Of a DNA stretch of 23,852 nt, positions 1 to 23,852 are shown piece by piece (the first letter of the stretch is position 1; the number at the start of each line of letters is the position of its first letter). Made by a program: the position numbers and the translations under genes. Source of the stretch: a virus (lineage: Duplodnaviria; Heunggongvirae; Uroviricota; Caudoviricetes). The notes under the pieces were generated by a model that ran no database searches, was not told the origin of the DNA, and saw only the letters and a list, made by a program, of their open reading frames with translations. The stretch is from the IMG/VR virus record IMGVR_UViG_2585427740_000001. The stretch is one strand, 5' to 3'.

Positions 1-1284
1 TTACTTCTTCGCCTCTGCAACCACTTTACTACCCACGCCGCGGTTATTGTATTCCCACATGCGGTTGTAGTTAGTGTCATTCAGATTGCGCTGTATTTCG
101 TCGTTATCATCTACGCTGCCGGTATTACCCGCAAACGGACGATTAGAGATCACCGCATCGGCCCACGGTTTAGCCGTGTTAAAACCTTCGTTGATGGCGC
201 TATCACGGATCACCACCTGACCGTTGGTATTGGCATCAACATCCAGCGAGCGGCCCAGTTGCGCCACACCATCACCGAAAGCATTGAAACGGCTGTTTAC
301 GGCGAGGAAACCGTAGTAAATGTTGGACAGCGTAGCCGGTGCAAACACATACGCTTCTTGCTGAGTACGTGAGTTCACCACGCGGAATTCGGTGTTATCG
401 AACACCACTGCGCCGCGACCAGAAACGATATCCACATCCCCTTCAATGTAGCTGTTGGTCACCAGCGTACGCGGCTGACGATTTGTTTCCAGACGGTTCT
501 GCACACCGCTGTTGGTGACAAAGAAGGTGTTCTGACGACCGAGAATGTTAACGTTGTTAATCTGTACCTGGTCACCATCAGTACGCAGTGCCACCGCCGG
601 ATGGTTACCTGCATCTACGCTATCGCCCAGCGTGTTTTCGATGGTCAGATTTTGCAGTTGCAGGCCATTGTTTTGTGACCAGAAGACCGCAGAGCAGAGA
701 ACACCGATACTGTCGCTGCGTTTGCTCTGGCAGCTATCGTACATATACCACGCTGGTTTACCTGGCATATATTTGCCGCGCGGGTTGACGTCGTGACGCC
801 AGTCGGCAGGGCTCATGCCACCATCAAGGGAAAGCCCAATCTTCACATCAATCGGTTTTTCACCTGTACCGTACAGAGTAATTCCACCCGGAGCGGCAGG
901 GACATATACCGTTCCCTGATACTCACCAGGCATCACGGCAATATACTGGCGCTTGTTGGTACGCTTGATAATTGCCGCATCTACCGCCGCCTGAATCGTG
1001 GTATGCGTTACACCTTGAGTGCCCGCCGGGCCGACAACAAAGTCAGGTTGCGCAGGCAGGGTAATCGGGGAAGGATTCCACGCTGCAGCACCTGGTGTCA
1101 GGGATGCAAAATAGTGTTGAGCATCGAAATTCTGCGCTTCTTTTGCCGACAGAATCGGGCGAGAAGAGGTACCAGGCGCGGTTTGATCAGAAGGACGTTG
1201 ATCGGGCGGGGTTGAGCTACAGGCGGTCAGCGTCACGCCAAAAGCCAATGCCAGCGCCAGACGGGAAACTGAAAATGTGTTCAC
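1..1284 (-). CDS. ybhC: YbhC-like outer-membrane lipoprotein (pectinesterase / acyl-CoA thioesterase family); chromosomal flank of the lambda attachment site
   Basis: 427-aa ORF complete in window (stop at 1-3). N-terminal signal peptide with lipobox LTAC. Sequence recalled as E. coli YbhC, which borders attB-lambda. Confidence 0.88.
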   Translation of the reverse strand: MNTFSVSRLALALAFGVTLTACSSTPPDQRPSDQTAPGTSSRPILSAKEAQNFDAQHYFASLTPGAAAWNPSPITLPAQPDFVVGPAGTQGVTHTTIQAAVDAAIIKRTNKRQYIAVMPGEYQGTVYVPAAPGGITLYGTGEKPIDVKIGLSLDGGMSPADWRHDVNPRGKYMPGKPAWYMYDSCQSKRSDSIGVLCSAVFWSQNNGLQLQNLTIENTLGDSVDAGNHPAVALRTDGDQVQINNVNILGRQNTFFVTNSGVQNRLETNRQPRTLVTNSYIEGDVDIVSGRGAVVFDNTEFRVVNSRTQQEAYVFAPATLSNIYYGFLAVNSRFNAFGDGVAQLGRSLDVDANTNGQVVIRDSAINEGFNTAKPWADAVISNRPFAGNTGSVDDNDEIQRNLNDTNYNRMWEYNNRGVGSKVVAEAKK

Positions 1285-1330
1285 AGGTTGCTCCGGGCTA
1301 TGAAATAGAAAAATGAATCCGTTGAAGCCT

Positions 1331-1418
1331 GCTTTTTTATACTAAGTTGGCATTATAAAAAAGCATTGCTTATCAATTTGTTGCAACGAACAGGTCACTA
1401 TCAGTCAAAATAAAATCA
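1331..1418. other. attL: lambda-type attL: 15-bp common core GCTTTTTTATACTAA (1331-1345) followed by the P' arm with arm-type Int sites, running up to the int stop codon
   Basis: Exact lambda att core read directly in the sequence. The downstream AT-rich arm (GTTGGCATTATAAAAAAGCATTGCTTATCAATTTGTTGCAACGAACAGGTCACTATCAGTCAAAATAAAATCATTATTTG) matches the recalled attP P' arm. The bacterial side is contiguous with the ybhC 3' flank. Confidence 0.9.
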
Positions 1419-2489
1419 TTATTTGATTTCAATTTTGTCCCACTCCCTGCCTCTGTCATCACGATACTGTGATGCCATGGTGTCCGACTTATGCCCGAGA
1501 AGATGTTGAGCAAATTTATCGCTTATCTGCTTCTCATAGAGTCTTGCAGACAAACTGCGCAACTCGTGAAAGGTTGGCGGATCCCCTTCGAAGGAGAGAC
1601 CTGATGCTTTTCGTGCGCGCATAAAATACCTTGATACTGTGCCGGATGAAAGCGGTTCACGACGAGTAGATGCAATTATGGTTTCTCCGCCAAGAATCTT
1701 TTTGCATTTATCAAGTGTTTCCTTCATTGATATCCCGAGAGCATCAACATGCAATGTTGTTGGGATGGCAATTTTTACGCCTGTTTTGCTTTGCTCGACA
1801 TAAAGATATCCATCTACGATATCAGACCACTTCATTTCGCATAAATCACCAACTCGCTGCCCGGTAACAACAGCCAGTTCCATTGCAAGTCTAAGCCAAC
1901 ATGGTGATGATTCTGCTGCTTGATAAATTTTCAGGTATTCGTCAGCCGTAAGTCTTGATCTCCTTACCTCTGATTTTGCAGCGCGAGTGGCTGCGACCGG
2001 GTTTGTTGTTATATGGCCTTCAGCCATAGCCTCTCGGAATGCATCGCTCAGTGTTGATCTGATTAACTTGGCTGATGCCGCCTTTCCCTCGTCTATGTAT
2101 CCATTGAGCATTGCCGCAATTTCTTTTGTGGTGATGTCTTCAAGTGGAGCATCAGGCAGACCCCTCCTTATTGCTTTAATTTTGCTCATGTAATTTATGA
2201 GTGTCTTCTGCTTGATTCCTCTGCTGGCCAGGATTTTTTCGTAGCGATCAAGCCATGAATGTAACGTAACGGAATTATCACTGTTGATTCTCGCTGTCAG
2301 AGGCTTGTGTTTGTGTCCTGAAAATAACTCAATGTTGGCCTGTATAGCTTCAGTGATTGCGATTCGCCTGTCTCGGCCTAATCCAAACTCTTTACCCGTC
2401 CTTGGGTCCCTGTAGCAGTAATATCCATTGTTTCTTATATAAAGGTTAGGGGGTAAATCCCGGCGCTCATGACTTCGCCTTCTTCCCAT
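1419..2489 (-). CDS. int: Phage lambda integrase (tyrosine recombinase)
   Basis: 356-aa ORF whose translation (MGRRRSHERRDLPPNLYIRNNGYY...) matches lambda Int as recalled. Sits adjacent to attL P' arm and overlaps xis. Confidence 0.97.
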   Translation of the reverse strand: MGRRRSHERRDLPPNLYIRNNGYYCYRDPRTGKEFGLGRDRRIAITEAIQANIELFSGHKHKPLTARINSDNSVTLHSWLDRYEKILASRGIKQKTLINYMSKIKAIRRGLPDAPLEDITTKEIAAMLNGYIDEGKAASAKLIRSTLSDAFREAMAEGHITTNPVAATRAAKSEVRRSRLTADEYLKIYQAAESSPCWLRLAMELAVVTGQRVGDLCEMKWSDIVDGYLYVEQSKTGVKIAIPTTLHVDALGISMKETLDKCKKILGGETIIASTRREPLSSGTVSRYFMRARKASGLSFEGDPPTFHELRSLSARLYEKQISDKFAQHLLGHKSDTMASQYRDDRGREWDKIEIK

Positions 2490-2685
2490 TTCTGATCCTC
2501 TTCAAAAGGCTACCTGTTACTGGTCGATTTAAGTCAACCTTTACCGCTGATTCGTGGAACAGATATTCTCTTCCATCCTTAACCGGAGGAGGGAATATCC
2601 TGCATTCGCGCACCCATCGACGAACTGTTTCAAGGCTTCTTGGGCGTCGCTGGCGAGCGTTCCACTCCTGAAGTGTCAAGTACAT
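2467..2685 (-). CDS. xis: Excisionase Xis
   Basis: 72-aa ORF (MYLTLQEWNARQRRPRSLETVRRWVRE...) matching lambda Xis as recalled. 23-nt overlap with int start, as in lambda. Confidence 0.95.
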   Translation of the reverse strand: MYLTLQEWNARQRRPRSLETVRRWVRECRIFPPPVKDGREYLFHESAVKVDLNRPVTGSLLKRIRNGKKAKS

Positions 2686-2724
2686 CGCAAAGTCTCCGCA
2701 ATTACACGCAAGAAAAAACCGCCA

Positions 2725-11165: not shown

Positions 11166-11173
11166 TAATCAAA

Positions 11174-12256
11174 TTAGAACTGGTAAACCATACCTACAGC
11201 AACGATATCATCGGTAGCAACGCCAGATGCTTTCGTGAAATCGCTCTTATCAATCAGGTTGATTTTGTAATCAACAAAAGTGGACATATTTTTGTTGAAG
11301 TAATAGGTTGCACCTACATCAATATATTCAACCAGGTCCTGATCACCCCACGCACCCAAGTCTTTTCCTTTAGATTGCAGGTAAGCAACGGACGGACGCA
11401 GACCGAAGTCGAACTGATATTGTGCAACTACTTCGAAGTTTTGTGCTTTGTTGGCAATATGGTTATTACCAAAAACAGTCATGTTCTGGGTTTCAGAATA
11501 GGTGGTAGCCAGATAGATGTTGTTCGCATCATATTTCAGACCAGCTGCCCATACTTCAGCATTTTGACCAGATGCATTCAGGCTGTTGTTACCGTAGATA
11601 ACCTGATTATTAGTGCGGTCAGATTTAGCATAGGTTGCACCTACACCGAATCCTTCATACTCATAAGTAGTGGAGAAACCGAAACCATCACCATTAGCTT
11701 CAGTTACGTCAGTGCGGTCATTTTTACCCTGATACTGAGCAGCAAAGTTCAGACCATCAACCAGACCAAAGAAGTCATTGTTACGATAAGTTGCAACACC
11801 TGTGGTGCGACCAGTCATGAATACATCTGTTTGGGTCCAGGTATCGCCACCGAATTCTGGCAGAACGTCGGTCCATGCACCAATATCGTATGCTACACCG
11901 TAGTTACGGCCATAATCGATGGAGCCGTAGTCACCGAATTTCAGGCCAGCGAAGGCAAGACGGGTTTTATCTTTGGAGGAACCTTGAGATTCAGCGCGGT
12001 TGCCTTTGAATTCATATTCCCACTGACCGAAACCAGTCAGTTGATCGTTGATTTGGGTTTCACCTTTGAAGCCAAGACGGGCATAAGTAGTATCACCATC
12101 ATCTGCATCATTAGAGGAGAAGTAGTGCTTAGCATTAACTTTCCCGTACAGATCCAGCTTGTTACTGTCTTTATTATAAATTTCAGCTGCCTGAGCAGAC
12201 ATCGCCATCAGTACTGATGCAGCTACAGCAGAAATTGCCACTGTTAATTTTTTCAT
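11174..12256 (-). CDS. nmpC: General porin of the OmpC/OmpF/NmpC(Lc) family
   Basis: 360 aa from [23 protein letters not shown] (signal peptide) to the C-terminal ...VGMVYQF. Resembles NmpC/Lc as recalled. The ORF-track ORF extends 20 codons further upstream, judged spurious. Confidence 0.92.
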
Positions 12257-16279: not shown

Positions 16280-16795
16280 ATGGAAGTCAACAAAAAGCAG
16301 CTGGCTGACATTTTCGGTGCGAGTATCCGTACCATTCAGAACTGGCAGGAACAGGGAATGCCCGTTCTGCGAGGCGGTGGCAAGGGTAATGAGGTGCTTT
16401 ATGACTCTGCCGCCGTCATAAAATGGTATGCCGAAAGGGATGCTGAAATTGAGAACGAAAAGCTGCGCCGGGAGGTTGAAGAACTGCGGCAGGCCAGCGA
16501 GGCAGATCTCCAGCCAGGGACTATTGAGTACGAACGCCATCGACTTACGCGTGCGCAGGCCGACGCACAGGAACTGAAGAATGCCAGAGACTCCGCTGAA
16601 GTGGTGGAAACCGCATTCTGTACTTTCGTGTTGTCGCGGATCGCAGGTGAAATTGCCAGTATTCTCGACGGGATCCCCCTGTCGGTGCAGCGGCGTTTTC
16701 CGGAACTGGAAAACCGACATGTTGATTTCCTGAAACGGGATATCATCAAAGCCATGAACAAAGCAGCCGCGCTGGATGAACTGATACCGTTATGA
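16280..16795 (+). CDS. nu1: Terminase small subunit Nu1, C-terminally altered (171 aa; the last ~10 residues of lambda Nu1 are replaced by a single L and a stop)
   Basis: Translation MEVNKKQLADIFGASIRTIQNWQEQGMPVLRGGGKGNEVLYDSAAVIKWYAERD... matches lambda Nu1 through ...AALDELIP, then diverges at about 16789. Confidence 0.9.
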   Translation: MEVNKKQLADIFGASIRTIQNWQEQGMPVLRGGGKGNEVLYDSAAVIKWYAERDAEIENEKLRREVEELRQASEADLQPGTIEYERHRLTRAQADAQELKNARDSAEVVETAFCTFVLSRIAGEIASILDGIPLSVQRRFPELENRHVDFLKRDIIKAMNKAAALDELIPL

Positions 16796-16817
16796 GTTTA
16801 CGGATACGCTGGGGCTG

Positions 16818-17222
16818 GTGACGTCATTCAGCTATGCAGGAGACAAGAATCGCCAGCTGACCCATTACAGCGATACCCGCTGGCATGAAGATTCCGTTCG
16901 TAACCGCTGGTTCAGCGTAATGGCGGGGCCGTCTGTGCGCGTGAATGAATGGTTCAGCGCGTATGCGATGGCGGGTGTGGCTTACAGCCGTGTGTCGACT
17001 TTCTCCGGGGATTATCTCCGCGTAACTGACAACAAGGGGAAAACGCACGACGTGCTGACCGGAAGTGATGACGGTCGCCACAGCAACACGTCTCTGGCGT
17101 GGGGAGCTGGCGTGCAGTTTAACCCGACCGAATCCGTGGCCATTGATATTGCTTATGAAGGCTCCGGCAGTGGCGACTGGCGCACTGACGGTTTCATCGT
17201 GGGTGTCGGTTATAAGTTCTGA
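16818..17222 (+). pseudogene. lom: lom (Ail/Lom/PagC-family outer-membrane protein), 3' fragment lacking signal peptide and proper start
   Basis: C-terminal ...SVMAGP...AYAMAGVA...IAYEGSGSGDWRTDGFIVGVGYKF matches the lambda Lom C-terminus as recalled. Upstream sequence is nu1; no ATG or signal peptide. Confidence 0.85.
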
Positions 17223-17276: not shown

Positions 17277-17286
17277 TGGGGTGAAT

Positions 17287-20250
17287 ATGGCAGTAAAGAT
17301 TTCAGGTGTACTGAAAGACGGCACAGGAAAACCGGTACAGAACTGCACAATCCAGCTGAAAGCAAAACGTAACAGCACCGCGGTGGTGGTGAACACGCTG
17401 GCCTCAGAAAATCCGGATGAAGCCGGGCGTTACAGCATGGACGTTGAGTACGGTCAGTACAGCGTTATTCTGTTGGTGGAAGGATTCCCGCCGTCACATG
17501 CCGGGACCATCACCGTGTATGAAGATTCCCGACCCGGTACGCTGAATGATTTTCTCGGTGCCATGACGGAGGATGATGCCCGTCCGGAGGCTCTGCGCCG
17601 TTTTGAACTGATGGTGGAAGAGGTGGCGCGTAACGCGTCCGCAGTGGCACAGAACACGGCAGCCGCGAAGAAGTCAGCCAGTGATGCCAGCACATCTGCC
17701 AGTGAGGCGGCAACTCATACAACCGATGCTGCAGGCTCAGCTCGTGCCGCCAGCACGTCAGCCGGACAGGCTGCATCATCTGCTCAGTCAGCATCTTCCA
17801 GCGCAGGAACGGCATCAACAAAGGCCAGTGAAGCATCGAAAAGTGCTGCTGCTGCAGAGTCCTCAAAAAGCGCGGCAGCTACCAGTGCCGCTGCGGCGAA
17901 AACGTCAGAAACGAATGCGGCAGCGTCACAACAATCAGCAGCCACTTCTGCATCCGCCGCGACCACGAAGGCGTCAGAAGCTGCCACCTCAGCCCGGGAT
18001 GCGGCGGCCTCAAAAGAGGCGGCAAAATCATCAGAAACGAGCGCAGCCTCGAGCGCCAGTAGTGCAGCCTCCTCGGCAACAGCGGCAGGAAATTCCGCGA
18101 AGGCGGCAAAAACGTCCGAGACGAACGCTAAGTCTTCTGAGACGGCAGCAGCACAGAGTGCCTCCGCAGCAGCAGACTCAAAAACAGCGGCTGCCTCATC
18201 TGCCAGCGCCGCGTCAACAAATGCCGGGCAGGCCTCAGCCAGTGCCACCGCTGCCGGAAAGTCGGCAGAAAGCGCCGCATCATCCGCTTCAACAGCCACA
18301 ACGAAGGCTGGCGAAGCCACTGAACAGGCCACGGCAGCAGCGAGGTCAGCTTCCGCAGCGAAGACATCCGAAACGAACGCGAAAGCGTCGGAAACCAGCG
18401 CAGAATCCTCAAAAACGGCTGCCGCATCGTCAGCCAGTTCGGCGGCGTCATCGGCATCATCGGCGTCTGCTTCAAAAGATGAGGCGACCAGACAGGCGTC
18501 AGCAGCGAAGGGCAGCGCCACGACGGCATCCACGAAGGCGACAGAGGCAGCTGGCAGTGCGACGGCGGCAGCTCAGAGCAAAAGTACGGCGGAATCCGCG
18601 GCAACGCGCGCCGAGACAGCAGCAAAACGGGCAGAGGATATTGCATCCGCCGTGGCGCTTGAGGATGCGAGCACGACGAAAAAGGGGATAGTACAGCTCA
18701 GCAGTGCGACTAACAGCACTTCCGAGTCACTGGCGGCAACGCCAAAAGCCGTTAAGGCCGCGTATGAGCTGGCTAACGGGAAATACACCGCACAGGATGC
18801 AACGACAGCACAGAAAGGGATAGTTCAGCTTAGCAACGCGACCAACAGCACATCTGAAATGCTGGCGGCAACGCCAAAGTCGGTAAAGGCAGCCTATGAC
18901 CTTGCTAACGGGAAATATACTGCTCAGGACGCTACGACAGCACAAAAAGGAATTGTCCAGCTCAGTAGTGCAACCAACAGCGCATCTGAAACGCTTGCCG
19001 CGACACCGAAAGCAGTGAAAGCAGCTAATGATAATGCGAATGGTCGGGTACCTTCTGCCCGTAAGGTGAATGGTAAGGCGCTTTCAGCGGATATAACACT
19101 GACGCCGAAAGATATTGGTACGCTTAACTCAACAACAATGTCATTCAGCGGTGGTGCTGGTTGGTTCAAATTAGCAACGGTAACCATGCCACAGGCGAGT
19201 TCTGTTGTTTCAATTACGTTGATTGGTGGCGCGGGATTTAACGTGGGGTCACCTCAACAGGCAGGTATATCTGAACTTGTTTTGCGTGCAGGTAATGGTA
19301 ATCCGAAGGGGATTACTGGTGCTTTATGGCAGCGCACATCGACAGGGTTTACAAATTTTGCCTGGGTCAATACATCTGGTGATACTTACGATATTTACGT
19401 TGCAATCGGAAATTATGCGACTGGTGTAAATATTCAATGGGATTATACCAGTAATGCCAGCGTGACGATTCATACGTCACCAGCATATTCTGCTAATAAG
19501 CCGGAAGGGTTAACGGACGGTACAGTTTATTCACTCTATACGCCATCAGAGCAGTTTTATCCGCCTGGCGCACCAATCCCGTGGCCATCAGATACCGTTC
19601 CGTCTGGCTATGCCCTGATGCAGGGGCAGACTTTTGACAAATCTGCATACCCGAAACTTGCAGCCGCTTATCCGTCAGCCGTGATCCCTGATATGCGTGG
19701 CTGGACGATTAAGGGCAACCCCGCCAGTGGTCGTGCCGTATTGTCTCAGGAACAGGACGGCATTAAATCGCACACCCACAGCGCCAGCGCATCCAGTACG
19801 GATTTGGGGACGAAAAACACATCGTCGTTTGATTACGGAACCAAATCCACGAATAACACCGGGGCGCATACCCATAGTATTAGCGGGACTGCAAATAGTG
19901 CCGGTGCGCACCAACACAAGAGTTCCGGTGCATTTGGTGGCACGAACACGAGCATTTTCCCTAATGGTTATACCGCGATTTCAAATCTAAGCGCGGGGAT
20001 TATGAGCACAACAAGCGGTAGTGGCCAGACTCGTAATGCAGGGAAGACATCATCAGATGGTGCTCATACCCACTCGCTGTCCGGCACTGCTGCAAGCGCA
20101 GGCGCACATGCACATACTGTCGGTATTGGTGCTCATACGCACTCCGTTGCGATTGGCTCACACGGACACACCATCACCGTTAACGCTGCTGGTAACGCGG
20201 AAAACACCGTCAAAAACATCGCATTTAACTATATTGTGAGGCTTGCATAA
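17287..20250 (+). CDS. stf: Side tail fibre protein Stf (about 987 aa from ATG 17287), with long Ala/Ser/Thr-rich low-complexity region, three ~43-aa tandem repeats and a His-rich C-terminal domain
   Basis: N-terminus [30 protein letters not shown]... and C-terminus ...[11 protein letters not shown] match lambda Stf as recalled. ORF-track ORF begins 2 codons upstream at GTG. Confidence 0.92.
18673..19050 (+). repeat. Three tandem ~129-132-nt repeats inside stf (unit encodes [19 protein letters not shown](S/M)[12 protein letters not shown](E/D)[11 protein letters not shown])
   Basis: Repeated peptide and nucleotide blocks starting near 18673, 18802 and 18934, read directly. Confidence 0.8.
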
Positions 20251-20831
20251 TGGCATTCAGAATGAGTGAACAACCACGGACCATAAAAATTTATAATCTG
20301 CTGGCCGGAACTAATGAATTTATTGGTGAAGGTGATGCATATATTCCGCCTCATACAGGTCTGCCAGCAAACAGTACCGATATTGCACCGCCAGATATTC
20401 CGGCTGGCTTCGTGGCTGTTTTCAACAGTGATGAGTCATCGTGGCATCTTGTTGAAGACCATCGGGGTAAAACAGTTTATGACGTGGCATCAGGGGACGC
20501 GTTATTTATTTCTGAACTCGGCTCATTACCGGAAAATGTTACCTGGTTATCCCCGGAAGGGGAGTTTCAGAAGTGGAACGGCACAGCCTGGGTGAAGGAT
20601 ACGGAAGCAGAAAAACTGTTCCGGATCCGGGAGGTGGAAGAAACAAAAAACAGCCTGATGCAGGTAGCCAGTGAGCATATAGCGCCGCTTCAGGATGCTG
20701 TGGATCTGGAGATCGCAACGGAGGAAGAAACCTTGTTGCTGGAAGCCTGGAAAAAGTATCGGGTATTGCTGAACCGTGTTGATACGTCAACTGCACAGGA
20801 TATTGAATGGCCAGTAGCACCTATAGGGTAA
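20250..20831 (+). CDS. tfa: Tail fibre assembly chaperone Tfa
   Basis: 193-aa translation [51 protein letters not shown]... matches lambda Tfa as recalled. ATG overlaps the stf stop. Confidence 0.95.
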
Positions 20832-21751: not shown

Positions 21752-22335
21752 CTTTATCAATGACTTATCTCCCGACTTCCCGCCTTGCTTTTCCTAAACA
21801 GAACAATCGTAGAATATTCTTGAAGGGTTAGATCGTCACTGTTTTCTGTTCGATACTGTGACATTCAGCACTTGATTCGCTATGGATCTGACAGGAAGGT
21901 TTTGAGCGAAAATTTGCAGTTATTCAGTCGTTTTCTTATCGGTCACCATTATTCTTTTAGACATTGATCCTACAAAGCTGCCGCAAAGTTGGTGGTGGGA
22001 ACTGAAGTTGCGTAGAGAAGGGGTCAATACCCGGAGGCAAACATGGGCTGGCAAAAGTGTAGCGGTATTAGGCGCAGCTATTTAGCCTAGTTATGTTTTA
22101 TGAAAACTTGATATCATATAAGTGTCTTACTTATTGGCTGTAAATAAGTTTTTCCTAAGGAATTGTTTCTTGAGTATCATTTGTAACTGTAACGGAATTT
22201 ATAATCCTTTGCTTTATTGTTACGGTATTTTTTATCACACCCTATTTTTTATGTGGTTTTTTATACTGAAGTTTGGCAAAGTGAACTTTATATGCATATA
22301 CTTCATCCTGGTTTCAGTTAAGTTGGGTGGATGAT

Positions 22336-23079
22336 ATGGCAACTACATGTTCAGTTATATTGATTTTGGAGTCCTTTGATGTTTATTTCGGAAAAGAGAG
22401 TGTGTTTCTGGAGAGAGGTTCATCTGTACTTGTCGACTCTAGCTCTAGAGATTTTTTCCTGACATATCCTGAAAGAGTGATAGTGGCGGATTTTGGCGCT
22501 GAGTTTATTAGTCGCTATTTGAAAGCTAATAACTTAAGGGATATTTCTGATTGTAGGGAATATCCATCTTATTTAAAAATAAACTTTGCTGACTTCAGTT
22601 TAATTAAAGGATTAATTAGTTGGGCTAATCACTGTGCTGAATACATAGAAATTTTTGATGAGTCTATTGCTTTTACATGTCTCTCTGCATTTTCTTCTGA
22701 AAAACAATTTGGAGTATTTCTGTTTGAATGTTTGAAAAGCACAGGGGCTAAAGTTAAAACGATTATTCATACGGATTTATCTGCACCATGGCGTCTTAAG
22801 GATATATCATCAAGATTATATCTCAGCGAAAGTTTACTAAAGAGGAAATTGAAAGAAGAGGGGGTATCATTCAGTAAGATCATACTTGATGAGAGGATGC
22901 AAATGGCTGAATATTTACTCAGCACTCGTTGTTATCCTATTAGTAAAGTAGCTAAGGTCTGTGGTTATGCCAGTGTCTCATACTTTACTTATGTATTTAG
23001 ACGTTATTTTGGTGTTTCTCCAAGTCAATACTCTCAGAGCAGTTCAGAAAGTAAAATTCTTACTCACCAGGGAATCTGA
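22336..23079 (+). CDS. AraC/XylS-family transcriptional regulator (AppY/EnvY-like), about 247 aa
   Basis: C-terminal AraC-type HTH signature (...WRLKDISSRLYLSESLLKRKLKEEGVSFSKIILDERMQMAEYLL...KVCGYASVSYFTYVFRRYFGVSPSQY). Low-GC gene; in-frame GTG 3 codons upstream is the ORF-track start. Confidence 0.85.
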   Translation: MATTCSVILILESFDVYFGKESVFLERGSSVLVDSSSRDFFLTYPERVIVADFGAEFISRYLKANNLRDISDCREYPSYLKINFADFSLIKGLISWANHCAEYIEIFDESIAFTCLSAFSSEKQFGVFLFECLKSTGAKVKTIIHTDLSAPWRLKDISSRLYLSESLLKRKLKEEGVSFSKIILDERMQMAEYLLSTRCYPISKVAKVCGYASVSYFTYVFRRYFGVSPSQYSQSSSESKILTHQGI

Positions 23080-23590
23080 TCATTGTTCTTGCCCCCTTAT
23101 TTCCAGACAGGGGGTGTATCTTAAGTTAACGTTACCCGCTGACGTCGATATTCTCGCGGAGAGCGATAACCCAACGCACTGTGCGGATGGTTTTCATTGT
23201 AATGTTCGATCGCCACTGCAAGATTATGCAATGCCGTTCTTACATTCGGTTTCGGCATGAACGCGATGTAGTCTTCCTTCATCGTTTTCACGAACCTTTC
23301 TGCCATTCCATTACTCTGAGGACTGCTGATTGCCGTTGTGCAGGGCTCCAGATTCAACTCTCTGGCGAACTGCCATGTTTCATGCGCTCTATACGCTGAA
23401 CCGTTATCTGTCAGCCACTGGATGGACTGTTCCGGTACTTTATCGCCAAAGCGTTTTTCTATCGCTCCTAACATGACATCCTGCACTGTCGCTTTATCGT
23501 AACCTCCCGTGCTTGCGGCCCAGTCTATGGCTTCACGATCGCAACAGTCCAGGGCGAACGTAACACGCAGTTTTGAATCGCCACGGGTTT
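23077..23590 (-). mobile_element. IS2-like (IS3 family) element fragment: terminal region plus 3' part of the transposase orfB
   Basis: Terminal sequence TTGCCCCCTTATTTCCAGACA resembles the recalled IS2 end. The orfB C-terminal translation matches IS2 InsD as recalled (...TVQDVMLGA...WLTDNGS.Y...[12 protein letters not shown]). Confidence 0.7.
23121..23585 (-). pseudogene. IS2-like transposase orfB, C-terminal ~155 codons only (5' part removed)
   Basis: ORF-track ORF 23121-23486 continues open upstream to a TAA at about 23586 (…[34 protein letters not shown]…). No orfA or N-terminal orfB upstream on this strand. Confidence 0.75.
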
Positions 23591-23630
23591 AACAGACACC
23601 TCAGAGTCATTTAAGATGGCTTAAAGAGAG

Positions 23631-23852
23631 GTGCCCATGAGCGGTAAGCGTTATCCCGAAGAGTTTAAAACTGAAGCAGTCAAACAGGTTGTTGATCGCG
23701 GTTATTCTGTTGCCAGCGTTGCAACACGTCTCGATATCACCACCCACAGCCTTTATGCCTGGATAAAGAAGTACGGTCCGGATTACTCCACTTTTTCATC
23801 AAGCCAATCCGCCCACCACTGCATCATTTCTCTGCGCTTATCGAGATACTGA
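23631..23852 (+). CDS. IS3-family transposase OrfA-like HTH protein (N-terminal part typical; C-terminus atypical, possibly disrupted)
   Basis: MSGKRYPEEFKTEAVKQVVDRGYSVASVATRLDITTHSLYAWIKKYGPD resembles IS3-family OrfA HTH domains. RBS AGAGAGGTGCCC-ATG. Opposite orientation to the IS2-like orfB fragment. Confidence 0.6.
   Translation: MPMSGKRYPEEFKTEAVKQVVDRGYSVASVATRLDITTHSLYAWIKKYGPDYSTFSSSQSAHHCIISLRLSRY

Follow-up and report, generated by a model that had tools for sequence, protein, structure and literature searches.

The stf gene analysed here contains about a kilobase of Ala/Ser/Thr-rich sequence followed by three tandem repeats, which raises the question whether this is low-complexity, recombination-prone DNA or whether it encodes a defined part of a tail fibre. 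The gene lies in the window, i.e., the whole stretch of 23,852 nucleotides that was analysed, and it belongs to a defective lambdoid prophage at att-lambda that is devoid of any head or tail genes, so that this stf copy has no virion of its own on which to form a fibre. The encoded protein is 100% identical to WP_000279081.1 from E. coli EC416. RefSeq places its start at 17287 (987 aa), and the longest open reading frame begins with a GTG at 17281 (989 aa), from which residues are numbered throughout. The gene is a member of the lambda Stf-type side tail fibre (PF08400) family, and the gene order lom–stf–tfa is present with an Ail/Lom fragment upstream and a Caudo_TAP protein downstream; a tRNA scan of the whole window found none. 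The parts of the gene and its downstream neighbour are as follows:

17287–20250, plus strand: stf, side tail fibre gene (open reading frame list; Pfam PF08400, three times PF03406, and PF07484)
17287–17568, plus strand: N-terminal collar domain, aa 3–96, for tail attachment of the fibre (Pfam PF08400, E 4.5e-71; lambda Stf N domain 9e7m)
17587–18657, plus strand: shaft of 51 uninterrupted heptads, aa 103–459 (autocorrelation, heptad stack, positional entropy, AF2)
18670–18801, plus strand: PF03406 (Phage_fiber_2) unit 1, aa 464–507, 27-aa core and 17-aa linker (Pfam; local HMM, 96.5 bits)
18802–18933, plus strand: PF03406 unit 2, aa 508–551 (Pfam, local HMM; 91% amino acid and 80% DNA identity with unit 1)
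18934–19065, plus strand: PF03406 unit 3, aa 552–595, core conserved, tail of the unit running into the distal arm (Pfam, local HMM)
19516–20247, plus strand: C-terminal receptor-binding tip, aa 746–989, with HxH repeats (PDB 2xgf, E 3e-81; Pfam Collar, Phage_fiber)
20250–20831, plus strand: tfa, tail fibre assembly chaperone (Pfam PF02413, Caudo_TAP, E 7.7e-43)

The collar domain scores 237.6 bits for PF08400 (phage_tail_N; cut-off 26.6), and it matches the solved N domain of lambda Stf (9e7m, chain residues 1–94) with an E-value of 7e-51. Following this domain, the fraction of Ala, Ser and Thr stays at 0.70–0.83 in all windows of 30 aa between aa 121 and ~436 (nt ~17640–18590). The preliminary description was right in reporting about 1 kb rich in these residues from 17640 onward, but its plain reading as low complexity gives way to a strict heptad periodicity and, with it, to a coiled coil. 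The shaft follows the heptad pattern x-S-A-x-x-A-x in 51 uninterrupted repeats, its register being unbroken across 357 aa. Autocorrelation yields an identity of 0.44 at lag 7 compared with 0.23 in shuffles (z = 10.9); each multiple of seven up to 119 has z >= 6.8, and all other lags stay at <= 1.8. When the heptads are stacked, Ala occupies position d in 46 of 47 and position a in 32 of 47, and Ser is found at g in 36 of 47. Both shaft ends carry hydrophobic caps, L/F/V/V at the start and A/V at the end, and large hydrophobic residues are nearly absent inside the tract. Entropy among 100 unique relatives amounts to 0.13–0.24 for heptad positions b, c, e and f, but drops to 0.034 for a, 0.024 for d and 0.029 for g; the latter three are 5–8 times less variable than the others (permutation p < 1e-4). 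A motif AKTSETNA had been counted at least four times, a number that does not hold for the exact KTSETNA, present three times (aa 207, 277 and 361); with variants, the relaxed K[TSA]SET[NSA]A occurs six times (aa 207, 249, 277, 284, 361 and 368). Since three copies of an exact 7-mer were reached by 6% of composition shuffles, its recurrence was dropped as evidence and the periodicity test was used instead; AKTSETNA is just one common version of the heptad. AF2, run on the single sequence as a monomer, predicts helix over aa 101–391 and 396–464 (mean pLDDT 58.7, mostly 55–87 in the helices) and falls below a pLDDT of 50 over the PF03406 units.

These data bear on whether the kilobase might be an intrinsically disordered spacer without defined structure. 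Its extreme composition, the scarcity of large hydrophobic residues inside the tract and the moderate AF2 confidence would fit such a spacer, but the unbroken register over 51 repeats, the conservation of a, d and g and the restriction of length changes to multiples of seven (see below) argue against it, as do the helical and trimeric state established by experiment for homologous PCoil segments and cryo-EM/ET of lambda Stf, so that a disordered spacer is hardly credible. The Ala/Ser/Thr-rich stretch very probably makes up the shaft, an alpha-helical coiled coil, of a lambda-type side tail fibre; the repeats behind it are three copies of a catalogued tail-fibre module. At 0.148 nm per residue, the shaft would measure ~53 nm, i.e., roughly 50 nm.

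We propose that the Ala/Ser/Thr-rich region and the repeats together would form the rod of the fibre. Residues 103–459, which a short linker separates from the collar domain, would assemble into a parallel trimeric alpha-helical coiled coil with an "alanine-zipper" core, in which Ala occupies a and d and Ser occupies g. The rod would end in three PF03406 modules, whose 27-aa conserved cores are connected by 17-aa linkers and which would join the shaft to a hinge and a distal arm; this arm would bear the T4 gp37-like receptor-binding tip, folded with help from Tfa. The tip belongs to the same fibre and lies beyond the coordinates of the Ala/Ser/Thr-rich stretch and the repeats. E. coli Lpp is an alanine-zipper parallel trimeric coiled coil of 56 residues with core positions that are largely alanine; compared with the 357 residues of the Stf shaft it is an analogy only, without sequence relationship.

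Such an architecture is already described for Ur-lambda gpStf and for PCoil prophage fibres and is ordinary phage biology, and our current understanding of tail fibres is unchanged by this analysis. The Ur-lambda side tail fibre gpStf is reportedly the subject of work by Hendrix and Duda from 1992. Its sequence was taken for comparison from KT232076 (gpStf, 774 aa); a 774-aa hit (P0156) considered as lambda Stf proved not to be that protein. Ur-lambda gpStf consists of StfN (1–91), a linker (92–101), a proximal coiled coil (102–393) and a hinge (394–422), and trimers of lambda Stf are attached to the tail where gpV meets gpM (Yu et al. 2025, PMC12617516). Both proteins share a near-identical collar domain, an Ala/Ser/Thr heptad shaft that aligns without gaps save for one block, a PF03406 core at the shaft end, a gp37-like C-terminal tip, and the neighbouring genes tfa downstream and lom upstream. 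They differ in that Ur-lambda gpStf has 36 heptads compared with 51 here (105 aa exactly; the present shaft would be ~16 nm longer), one PF03406 unit compared with three, and a distal arm of another kind linking the units with the tip; at the DNA level, the megablast match with lambda stf has 86.5% identity and extends across just 35% of the gene. Phages mEp332 and ev099 are examples with 51 heptads, showing 95% identity across the shaft. PCoil, an Ala/Ser-rich segment that follows PF08400, was shown by CD and SEC-MALLS to be a trimeric helical coiled coil, with length differences in multiples of seven (Ghosh et al. 2012, PMC3368898). The EHEC PfN-PCoil fibres EPclA-D of that study resemble Stf in these length steps and, in some architectures, in the possession of PF03406 units, whereas their PCoil comprises 88–116 aa compared with the 357-aa shaft; no gp37-like arm follows in them, its place being taken by collagen triple helices plus a PfC domain.

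The repeats behind the shaft were recovered by TRF (18680–19025, period 132, 2.6 copies), by a repeat search (copies at 18662, 18794 and 18926) and by Pfam, in which PF03406 matches three stretches with 172.3 bits against a gathering cut-off of 22. Three tandem units at about 18673, 18802 and 18934 had been described with a length of 43 aa; the units are real, but their length is 44 aa (132 nt), and in Pfam phase they start at 18670, 18802 and 18934. The near-identity ascribed to them applies to units 1 and 2 in protein (91%) and neither to their DNA (80%), in which 18 of 22 codon differences are synonymous, nor to unit 3, which shares with units 1 and 2 just the first ~27 aa, the core. Core and junction of unit 3 align to residues 100–155 of Mu gpS (5yvq, E 3e-9).

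Unit numbers in relatives were counted with a local repeat HMM run with --max and sequences were checked by eye, since default settings miss single-unit proteins. Complete Stf proteins sharing the N-domain and the shaft contain one unit in 31, two in 26 and three in 6 cases; protein clusters contain 2–4 units, and close relatives with the same distal arm 1–4. One and the same downstream arm was found with one, two and three units, and each of three arm types occurs with 1–3 units. Shaft length changes are of a different kind: one heptad is added in strain B2 and 15 heptads are missing in strain 1506 and Ur-lambda, and other steps across the family are also multiples of seven residues (+7, -105, -112, -224 etc.). 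Altogether 30 of 41 family representatives (14% expected by chance) and 9 of 17 distinct lengths are in heptad phase; the remaining 11 of 41 representatives deviate mostly by -1, and out-of-phase steps of +4 and +1 are rare. Length variants are thus nearly confined to multiples of seven residues, as in PCoil-type coiled coils. The suggestion that fibre length could vary between isolates is borne out by unit numbers of 1–4 and by these heptad steps; the comparison of copy number across relatives proposed as a check confirmed variation for the units, with shaft length being constant in ~98% of close relatives.

This variation among relatives, together with one lineage (L002, L035 and L039) in which two units are 94–95% identical in DNA with identical runs of 60–86 nt, could be taken to indicate a contingency locus at which frequent slippage or intragenic recombination alters fibre length within a strain. 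The near-identical units in this lineage point to a recent duplication. In the present allele, however, DNA identity between units is 58–80% with a longest shared identical run of 17 nt, the differences between units 1 and 2 are mainly synonymous, and the shaft DNA contains no exact repeat of >= 12 nt and no more repeats than codon shuffles. Moreover, shaft length is the same in 191 of 193 close relatives and in 47 of 47 full-length matches sampled from E. coli genomes, with identities as low as 89%, and the deletion junction in strain 1506 shows a microhomology of only ~5–6 nt. The expectation that the repeats are recombination-prone is not supported, a contingency locus is highly unlikely, and the repeats of this allele are not slippage-prone, their DNA lacking a repeat of sufficient length.

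Under the preferred reading as a coiled-coil rod, changes of shaft length would be tolerated almost only as whole heptads, and one step size recurs. A 105-aa block (15 heptads) is absent in different relatives at >= 4 positions, aa ~135–239, 202–306, 215–319 and 307–411 (the latter in lambda), and 112-aa blocks are absent at three further positions. Neither a DNA periodicity of 315 nt nor homology at the junctions was found that could account for the block size: a DNA super-repeat was rejected on in-register identity at lag 315 nt of <= 65% over 60 nt and on the short junction microhomology of 5–6 nt, and among the multiples of seven, lag 105 gives the lowest autocorrelation in the protein. 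Fifteen heptads correspond to about one supercoil turn. A supercoil-phase rule with multiples of five heptads in a C3 fibre was rejected as well, since steps of 7, 16, 29, 31, 32 and 46 heptads do not fit. Recurring absence of 105 aa at different sites without a DNA cause would suggest that certain fibre lengths are selected; we consider it doubtful that shaft length is selected for a few discrete classes beyond heptad quantisation. Another possibility is that shaft length is fitted to how far the collar lies from the cell surface.

The PF03406 core is common to otherwise unrelated fibres (lambda, Rac StfR, Mu S). StfR, encoded by the Rac prophage of E. coli K-12, and further proteins named "prophage tail fiber N-terminal domain-containing" share the N domain and have an equally long shaft with ~94% DNA identity, but possess one PF03406 unit and then another arm (LQKDQNGADIP...). 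Phage Mu gpS (PDB 5yvq, 8ju3) and other PF03406 carriers share the core KG(I/L)VQL(S/T)SAT(N/D)S.SETLAAT.KAVK; Mu gpS, which has the core just once, lacks a heptad shaft and is placed in a myovirus context of baseplate attachment. Homology of E. coli sequences to a junction probe breaks off at probe positions 186–208, where core 1 has its 3' end, and at 341–347, in the linker after core 2. Since homology between alternative arms ends there, we infer that the core may act as a recombination joint for the exchange of distal arms, at which unit number would also change via unequal exchange or duplication. The distal end has a different relative: aa 746–989 align across the whole crystallised tip of the T4 long tail fibre protein gp37 (PDB 2xgf), including the HxH iron-binding motifs, a likeness confined to the C-terminal quarter of Stf, while the proximal parts of the T4 fibre are unrelated.

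The shaft region also contains long reading frames other than that of stf:

17681–18691, plus strand: spurious open reading frame of 336 aa, shaft region, +1 frame (open reading frame list, codon shuffles)
17784–18533, minus strand: spurious antisense open reading frame of 249 aa, counterpart of lambda orf206b (open reading frame list, codon shuffles)
18128–18646, minus strand: long out-of-frame open reading frame of 172 aa (open reading frame list)

Their lengths and the analogous orf206b listed in the old annotation of the lambda GenBank record might suggest that one of them is a real overlapping gene. Against this, codon-shuffled segments give equally long open stretches: in the frame of the 336-aa reading frame the mean is 232 codons and the observed length is reached in 11%, and for the 249-aa antisense frame the mean is 244 codons and the observed length is reached in 41%. 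T accounts for just 12% of the sense strand of the shaft and for 2.5% of second codon positions, a composition that makes stop codons rare. The chance of an overlapping gene is practically negligible, and the frames, noted earlier as spurious, exist as compositional artefacts.

For annotation this means that the "low-complexity" kilobase of lambdoid stf genes is to be read as a coiled-coil shaft, and long reading frames in its other frames, including lambda's historical orf206b, as artefacts of T-poor sequence. Stf chimeras are used in lambda-derived delivery particles (Brödel et al. 2024, PMC11338833). For their engineering it is relevant that natural shaft lengths change almost only by heptads and that the PF03406 core, with 1–4 units, probably serves as a natural joint. 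Finally, the stf region is multi-copy in E. coli, where the median genome carries it at 3 places and the maximum is 17, and this may lie behind many of the "partial" Stf entries in databases.

The window begins in ybhC and continues into a defective DLP12-like lambdoid prophage, which is integrated at att-lambda, between ybhC and ybhB/bioA, despite its DLP12-like gene set (window 1-2700 and 22300-23852). It is collinear with Escherichia coli EC416 except for an IS2 in EC416 at the position of window ~21970. The gene order in the prophage is int, xis, recombination genes, ninE-rusA-quuD, an OmpC-family porin, essD-rrrD-rzpD, bor, nohD, lom, stf and tfa, and no head or tail genes lie between Nu1 and lom. 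Although the head and tail block (A to J) is deleted, the ORFs of stf and tfa downstream of it are intact. The features referred to here are:

~11173-12255, minus strand: OmpC-family porin gene
16280-17222: nohD (Nu1 homologue, 171 aa) continuing directly into a lom that lacks its first ~65 codons
17281-20250, plus strand: stf ORF, 989 aa (RefSeq start 17287)
22327-23079: AraC-family regulator, present with IS3-family fragments at the right prophage end

The side tail fibre protein Stf shares 100% identity with WP_000279081.1 from E. coli EC416. Its N domain (PF08400) matches the solved lambda collar (9e7m) and its last 244 aa (window 19516-20247) match the receptor-binding tip of T4 gp37 (2xgf, E 3e-81). 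A gp37-type tip binds OmpC in T4 and lambda; here, a gene of the OmpC porin family is carried by the same prophage.

The kilobase described initially as low-complexity sequence is very probably a coiled coil. The preliminary description was right about its composition, as Ala, Ser and Thr account for 70-83% of every 30-aa window from aa 121 to ~436. In the autocorrelation of residues 115-455, identity at lag 7 is 0.44 compared with 0.23 in shuffles (z = 10.9), and z reaches at least 6.8 at all multiples of seven up to 119, with other lags at 1.8 or below. Stacked in sevens, the sequence follows the pattern x-S-A-x-x-A-x, in which Ala occupies one core position in 46 of 47 heptad rows and the other in 32, and Ser the position before in 36. 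The register is unbroken over aa 103-459 (357 aa, 51 heptads), and ordinary hydrophobic core residues cap both ends (L105/F108/V112/V115 and A455/V458). Mean column entropy over 100 unique close relatives of the same length is 0.034 at a, 0.024 at d and 0.029 at g, with values of 0.13-0.24 for b, c, e and f (permutation p < 1e-4), and an AF2 monomer model predicts helix over aa 101-391 and 396-464 with moderate confidence. The AKTSETNA motif, said to recur at least four times, is thus a common form of the heptad, which is clearer in a more regular relative; exact KTSETNA is found only three times (aa 207, 277 and 361), and the count of four is exceeded by the relaxed form K[TSA]SET[NSA]A (n = 6).

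This tract would constitute the proximal rod of the side tail fibre, as a trimeric coiled coil of the alanine-zipper type with an estimated length of ~53 nm versus ~37 nm in lambda (0.148 nm per residue), and three PF03406 modules would then connect it to a hinge and the gp37-like receptor-binding arm. The Ur-lambda fibre has been built from cryo-EM, cryo-ET and AlphaFold3; each side fibre is a trimer, with StfN at 1-91, a linker at 92-101, the proximal coiled coil at 102-393, a hinge at 394-422, followed by the distal part (Yu et al. 2025, PMC12617516). In prophage fibres that carry this N domain, differences in length were noted to be multiples of seven (Ghosh et al. 2012, PMC3368898). Databases and papers already cover the gene, its domains, the coiled-coil character of the Ala/Ser tract and the multiple-of-seven rule.

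The length polymorphism that had been predicted does exist, both in the shaft and in the number of units. The first unit lies at the same distance from the N-domain anchor in 191 of 193 close relatives, and the 47 full-length E. coli matches to nt 17560-18700 that were sampled are all equal in span, down to 88.8% identity. The rare variants comprise a duplicated SSASSAA heptad (+7 aa; strain B2 and two others), a loss of 105 aa (strain 1506), and single occurrences of +4 aa and +1 aa; the Ur-lambda shaft is likewise shorter by exactly 105 aa. When the whole N-domain family is represented at 50% identity, the anchor-to-unit distance lies between 30 and 354 aa; its difference from the window value is a multiple of seven for 30 of 41 proteins and for 9 of 17 distinct lengths, where chance would give one in seven. 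In comparisons of window aa 135-411 with P0131, P0134, P0137, P0125, L082 and L084 (database proteins and loci), exactly 105 aa (15 heptads) are absent at no fewer than four different shaft positions across different relatives, and 112-aa blocks at three others, one junction connecting KSSETSA (aa 249) to KTSETNA (aa 361). No DNA feature setting the 105/112-aa block size was found. These sizes may recur because selection favours certain shaft lengths, or their recurrence could be a sampling effect.

Three tandem units follow the shaft, as detected by TRF (period 132, 2.6 copies), by a repeat search (three copies spaced 132 nt) and by three Pfam PF03406 matches; each measures 44 aa rather than the 43 aa first given, with a 27-aa core and a 17-aa linker, and the last core leads into the distal arm. 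They had been called near-identical, which applies to units 1 and 2 in protein (91%) but not in DNA (80%), and unit 3 resembles the others over its first ~27 aa only. Mu gpS (5yvq residues 112-150) and Ur-lambda Stf contain the same core in one copy.

Complete Stf proteins from 80 IMG/VR loci and the window, all with the same N domain and shaft, contain one unit (31 proteins), two (26), three (6) or none (1). Of the best 120 protein clusters, 117 have two units, one has three and two have four. Unit numbers of n and n+1 are both seen in each of three different arm types; proteins with the gp37-type arm have one unit (7 proteins), two (3) or three (6). A 641-nt probe spanning the three units matched over at least 80% of its length in 1224 of 5426 complete E. 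coli genomes, and sampled matches with the same arm are exactly 132 nt (H138) or 264 nt (H142, H143) shorter. In the lineage of the loci L002, L035 and L039, the duplication is recent, since units 1 and 2 share 94-95% of their DNA, compared with 80% in the window. Two relatives (database proteins P0005 and P0039) have four cores that form a pair of 100-aa super-repeats (58 + 42 aa), into which a APSSHTHPWNQITGVP segment is inserted. The closest database proteins (P0001-P0120) are mostly 'partial', stopping at contig ends, which may represent short-read assembly breaks in a multi-copy region; several are misannotated as 'short-chain fatty acid transporter, partial'.

Recombination-prone DNA repeats in this gene had been suggested as a cause of the variation, and this cause did not hold for the allele in the window. 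Exact repeats in the shaft DNA are all shorter than 12 nt (the median longest repeat in codon shuffles is 12 nt), the longest identical stretch between units is 17 nt, and units 1 and 2 differ at 22 codons, 18 of them synonymously. The window allele is not recombination-prone in cis. The deletion junction in strain 1506 has a microhomology of 5-6 nt. Stf-like sequence occupies a median of 3 places per E. coli genome, and up to 17; homology to alternative fibres stops at probe positions 186-208 (3' end of core 1) and 341-347 (linker after core 2), and that to S74-type fibres at nt 18128, a recurrent mosaic breakpoint within the coiled coil. The genome matches H112-H117 ('N-terminal domain and S74 family') share no more of the shaft probe than its first 569 nt, and all stop at aa ~283. 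From these multiple copies and recurrent endpoints we infer that the length variation is best explained by phages and prophages exchanging sequence in trans and by occasional duplications, with the heptad register acting as a filter.

The long spurious ORFs reported in other frames are present, and comparable open stretches arise in codon shuffles. T makes up 12% of the shaft segment and 2.5% at codon position 2, and the AT skew is 0.41-0.47. In the two frames holding the longest ORFs, shuffles give means of 232 and 244 codons, and 11% and 41% of them attain the lengths actually observed, 348 and 262 codons. The lambda GenBank record (J02459, L085) annotates orf206b (20147-20767, minus strand) inside orf-401, antisense to the part that encodes the shaft; this ORF and its window counterpart are one and the same kind of compositional artefact, the counterpart being the ORF at 17784-18533 (minus strand).
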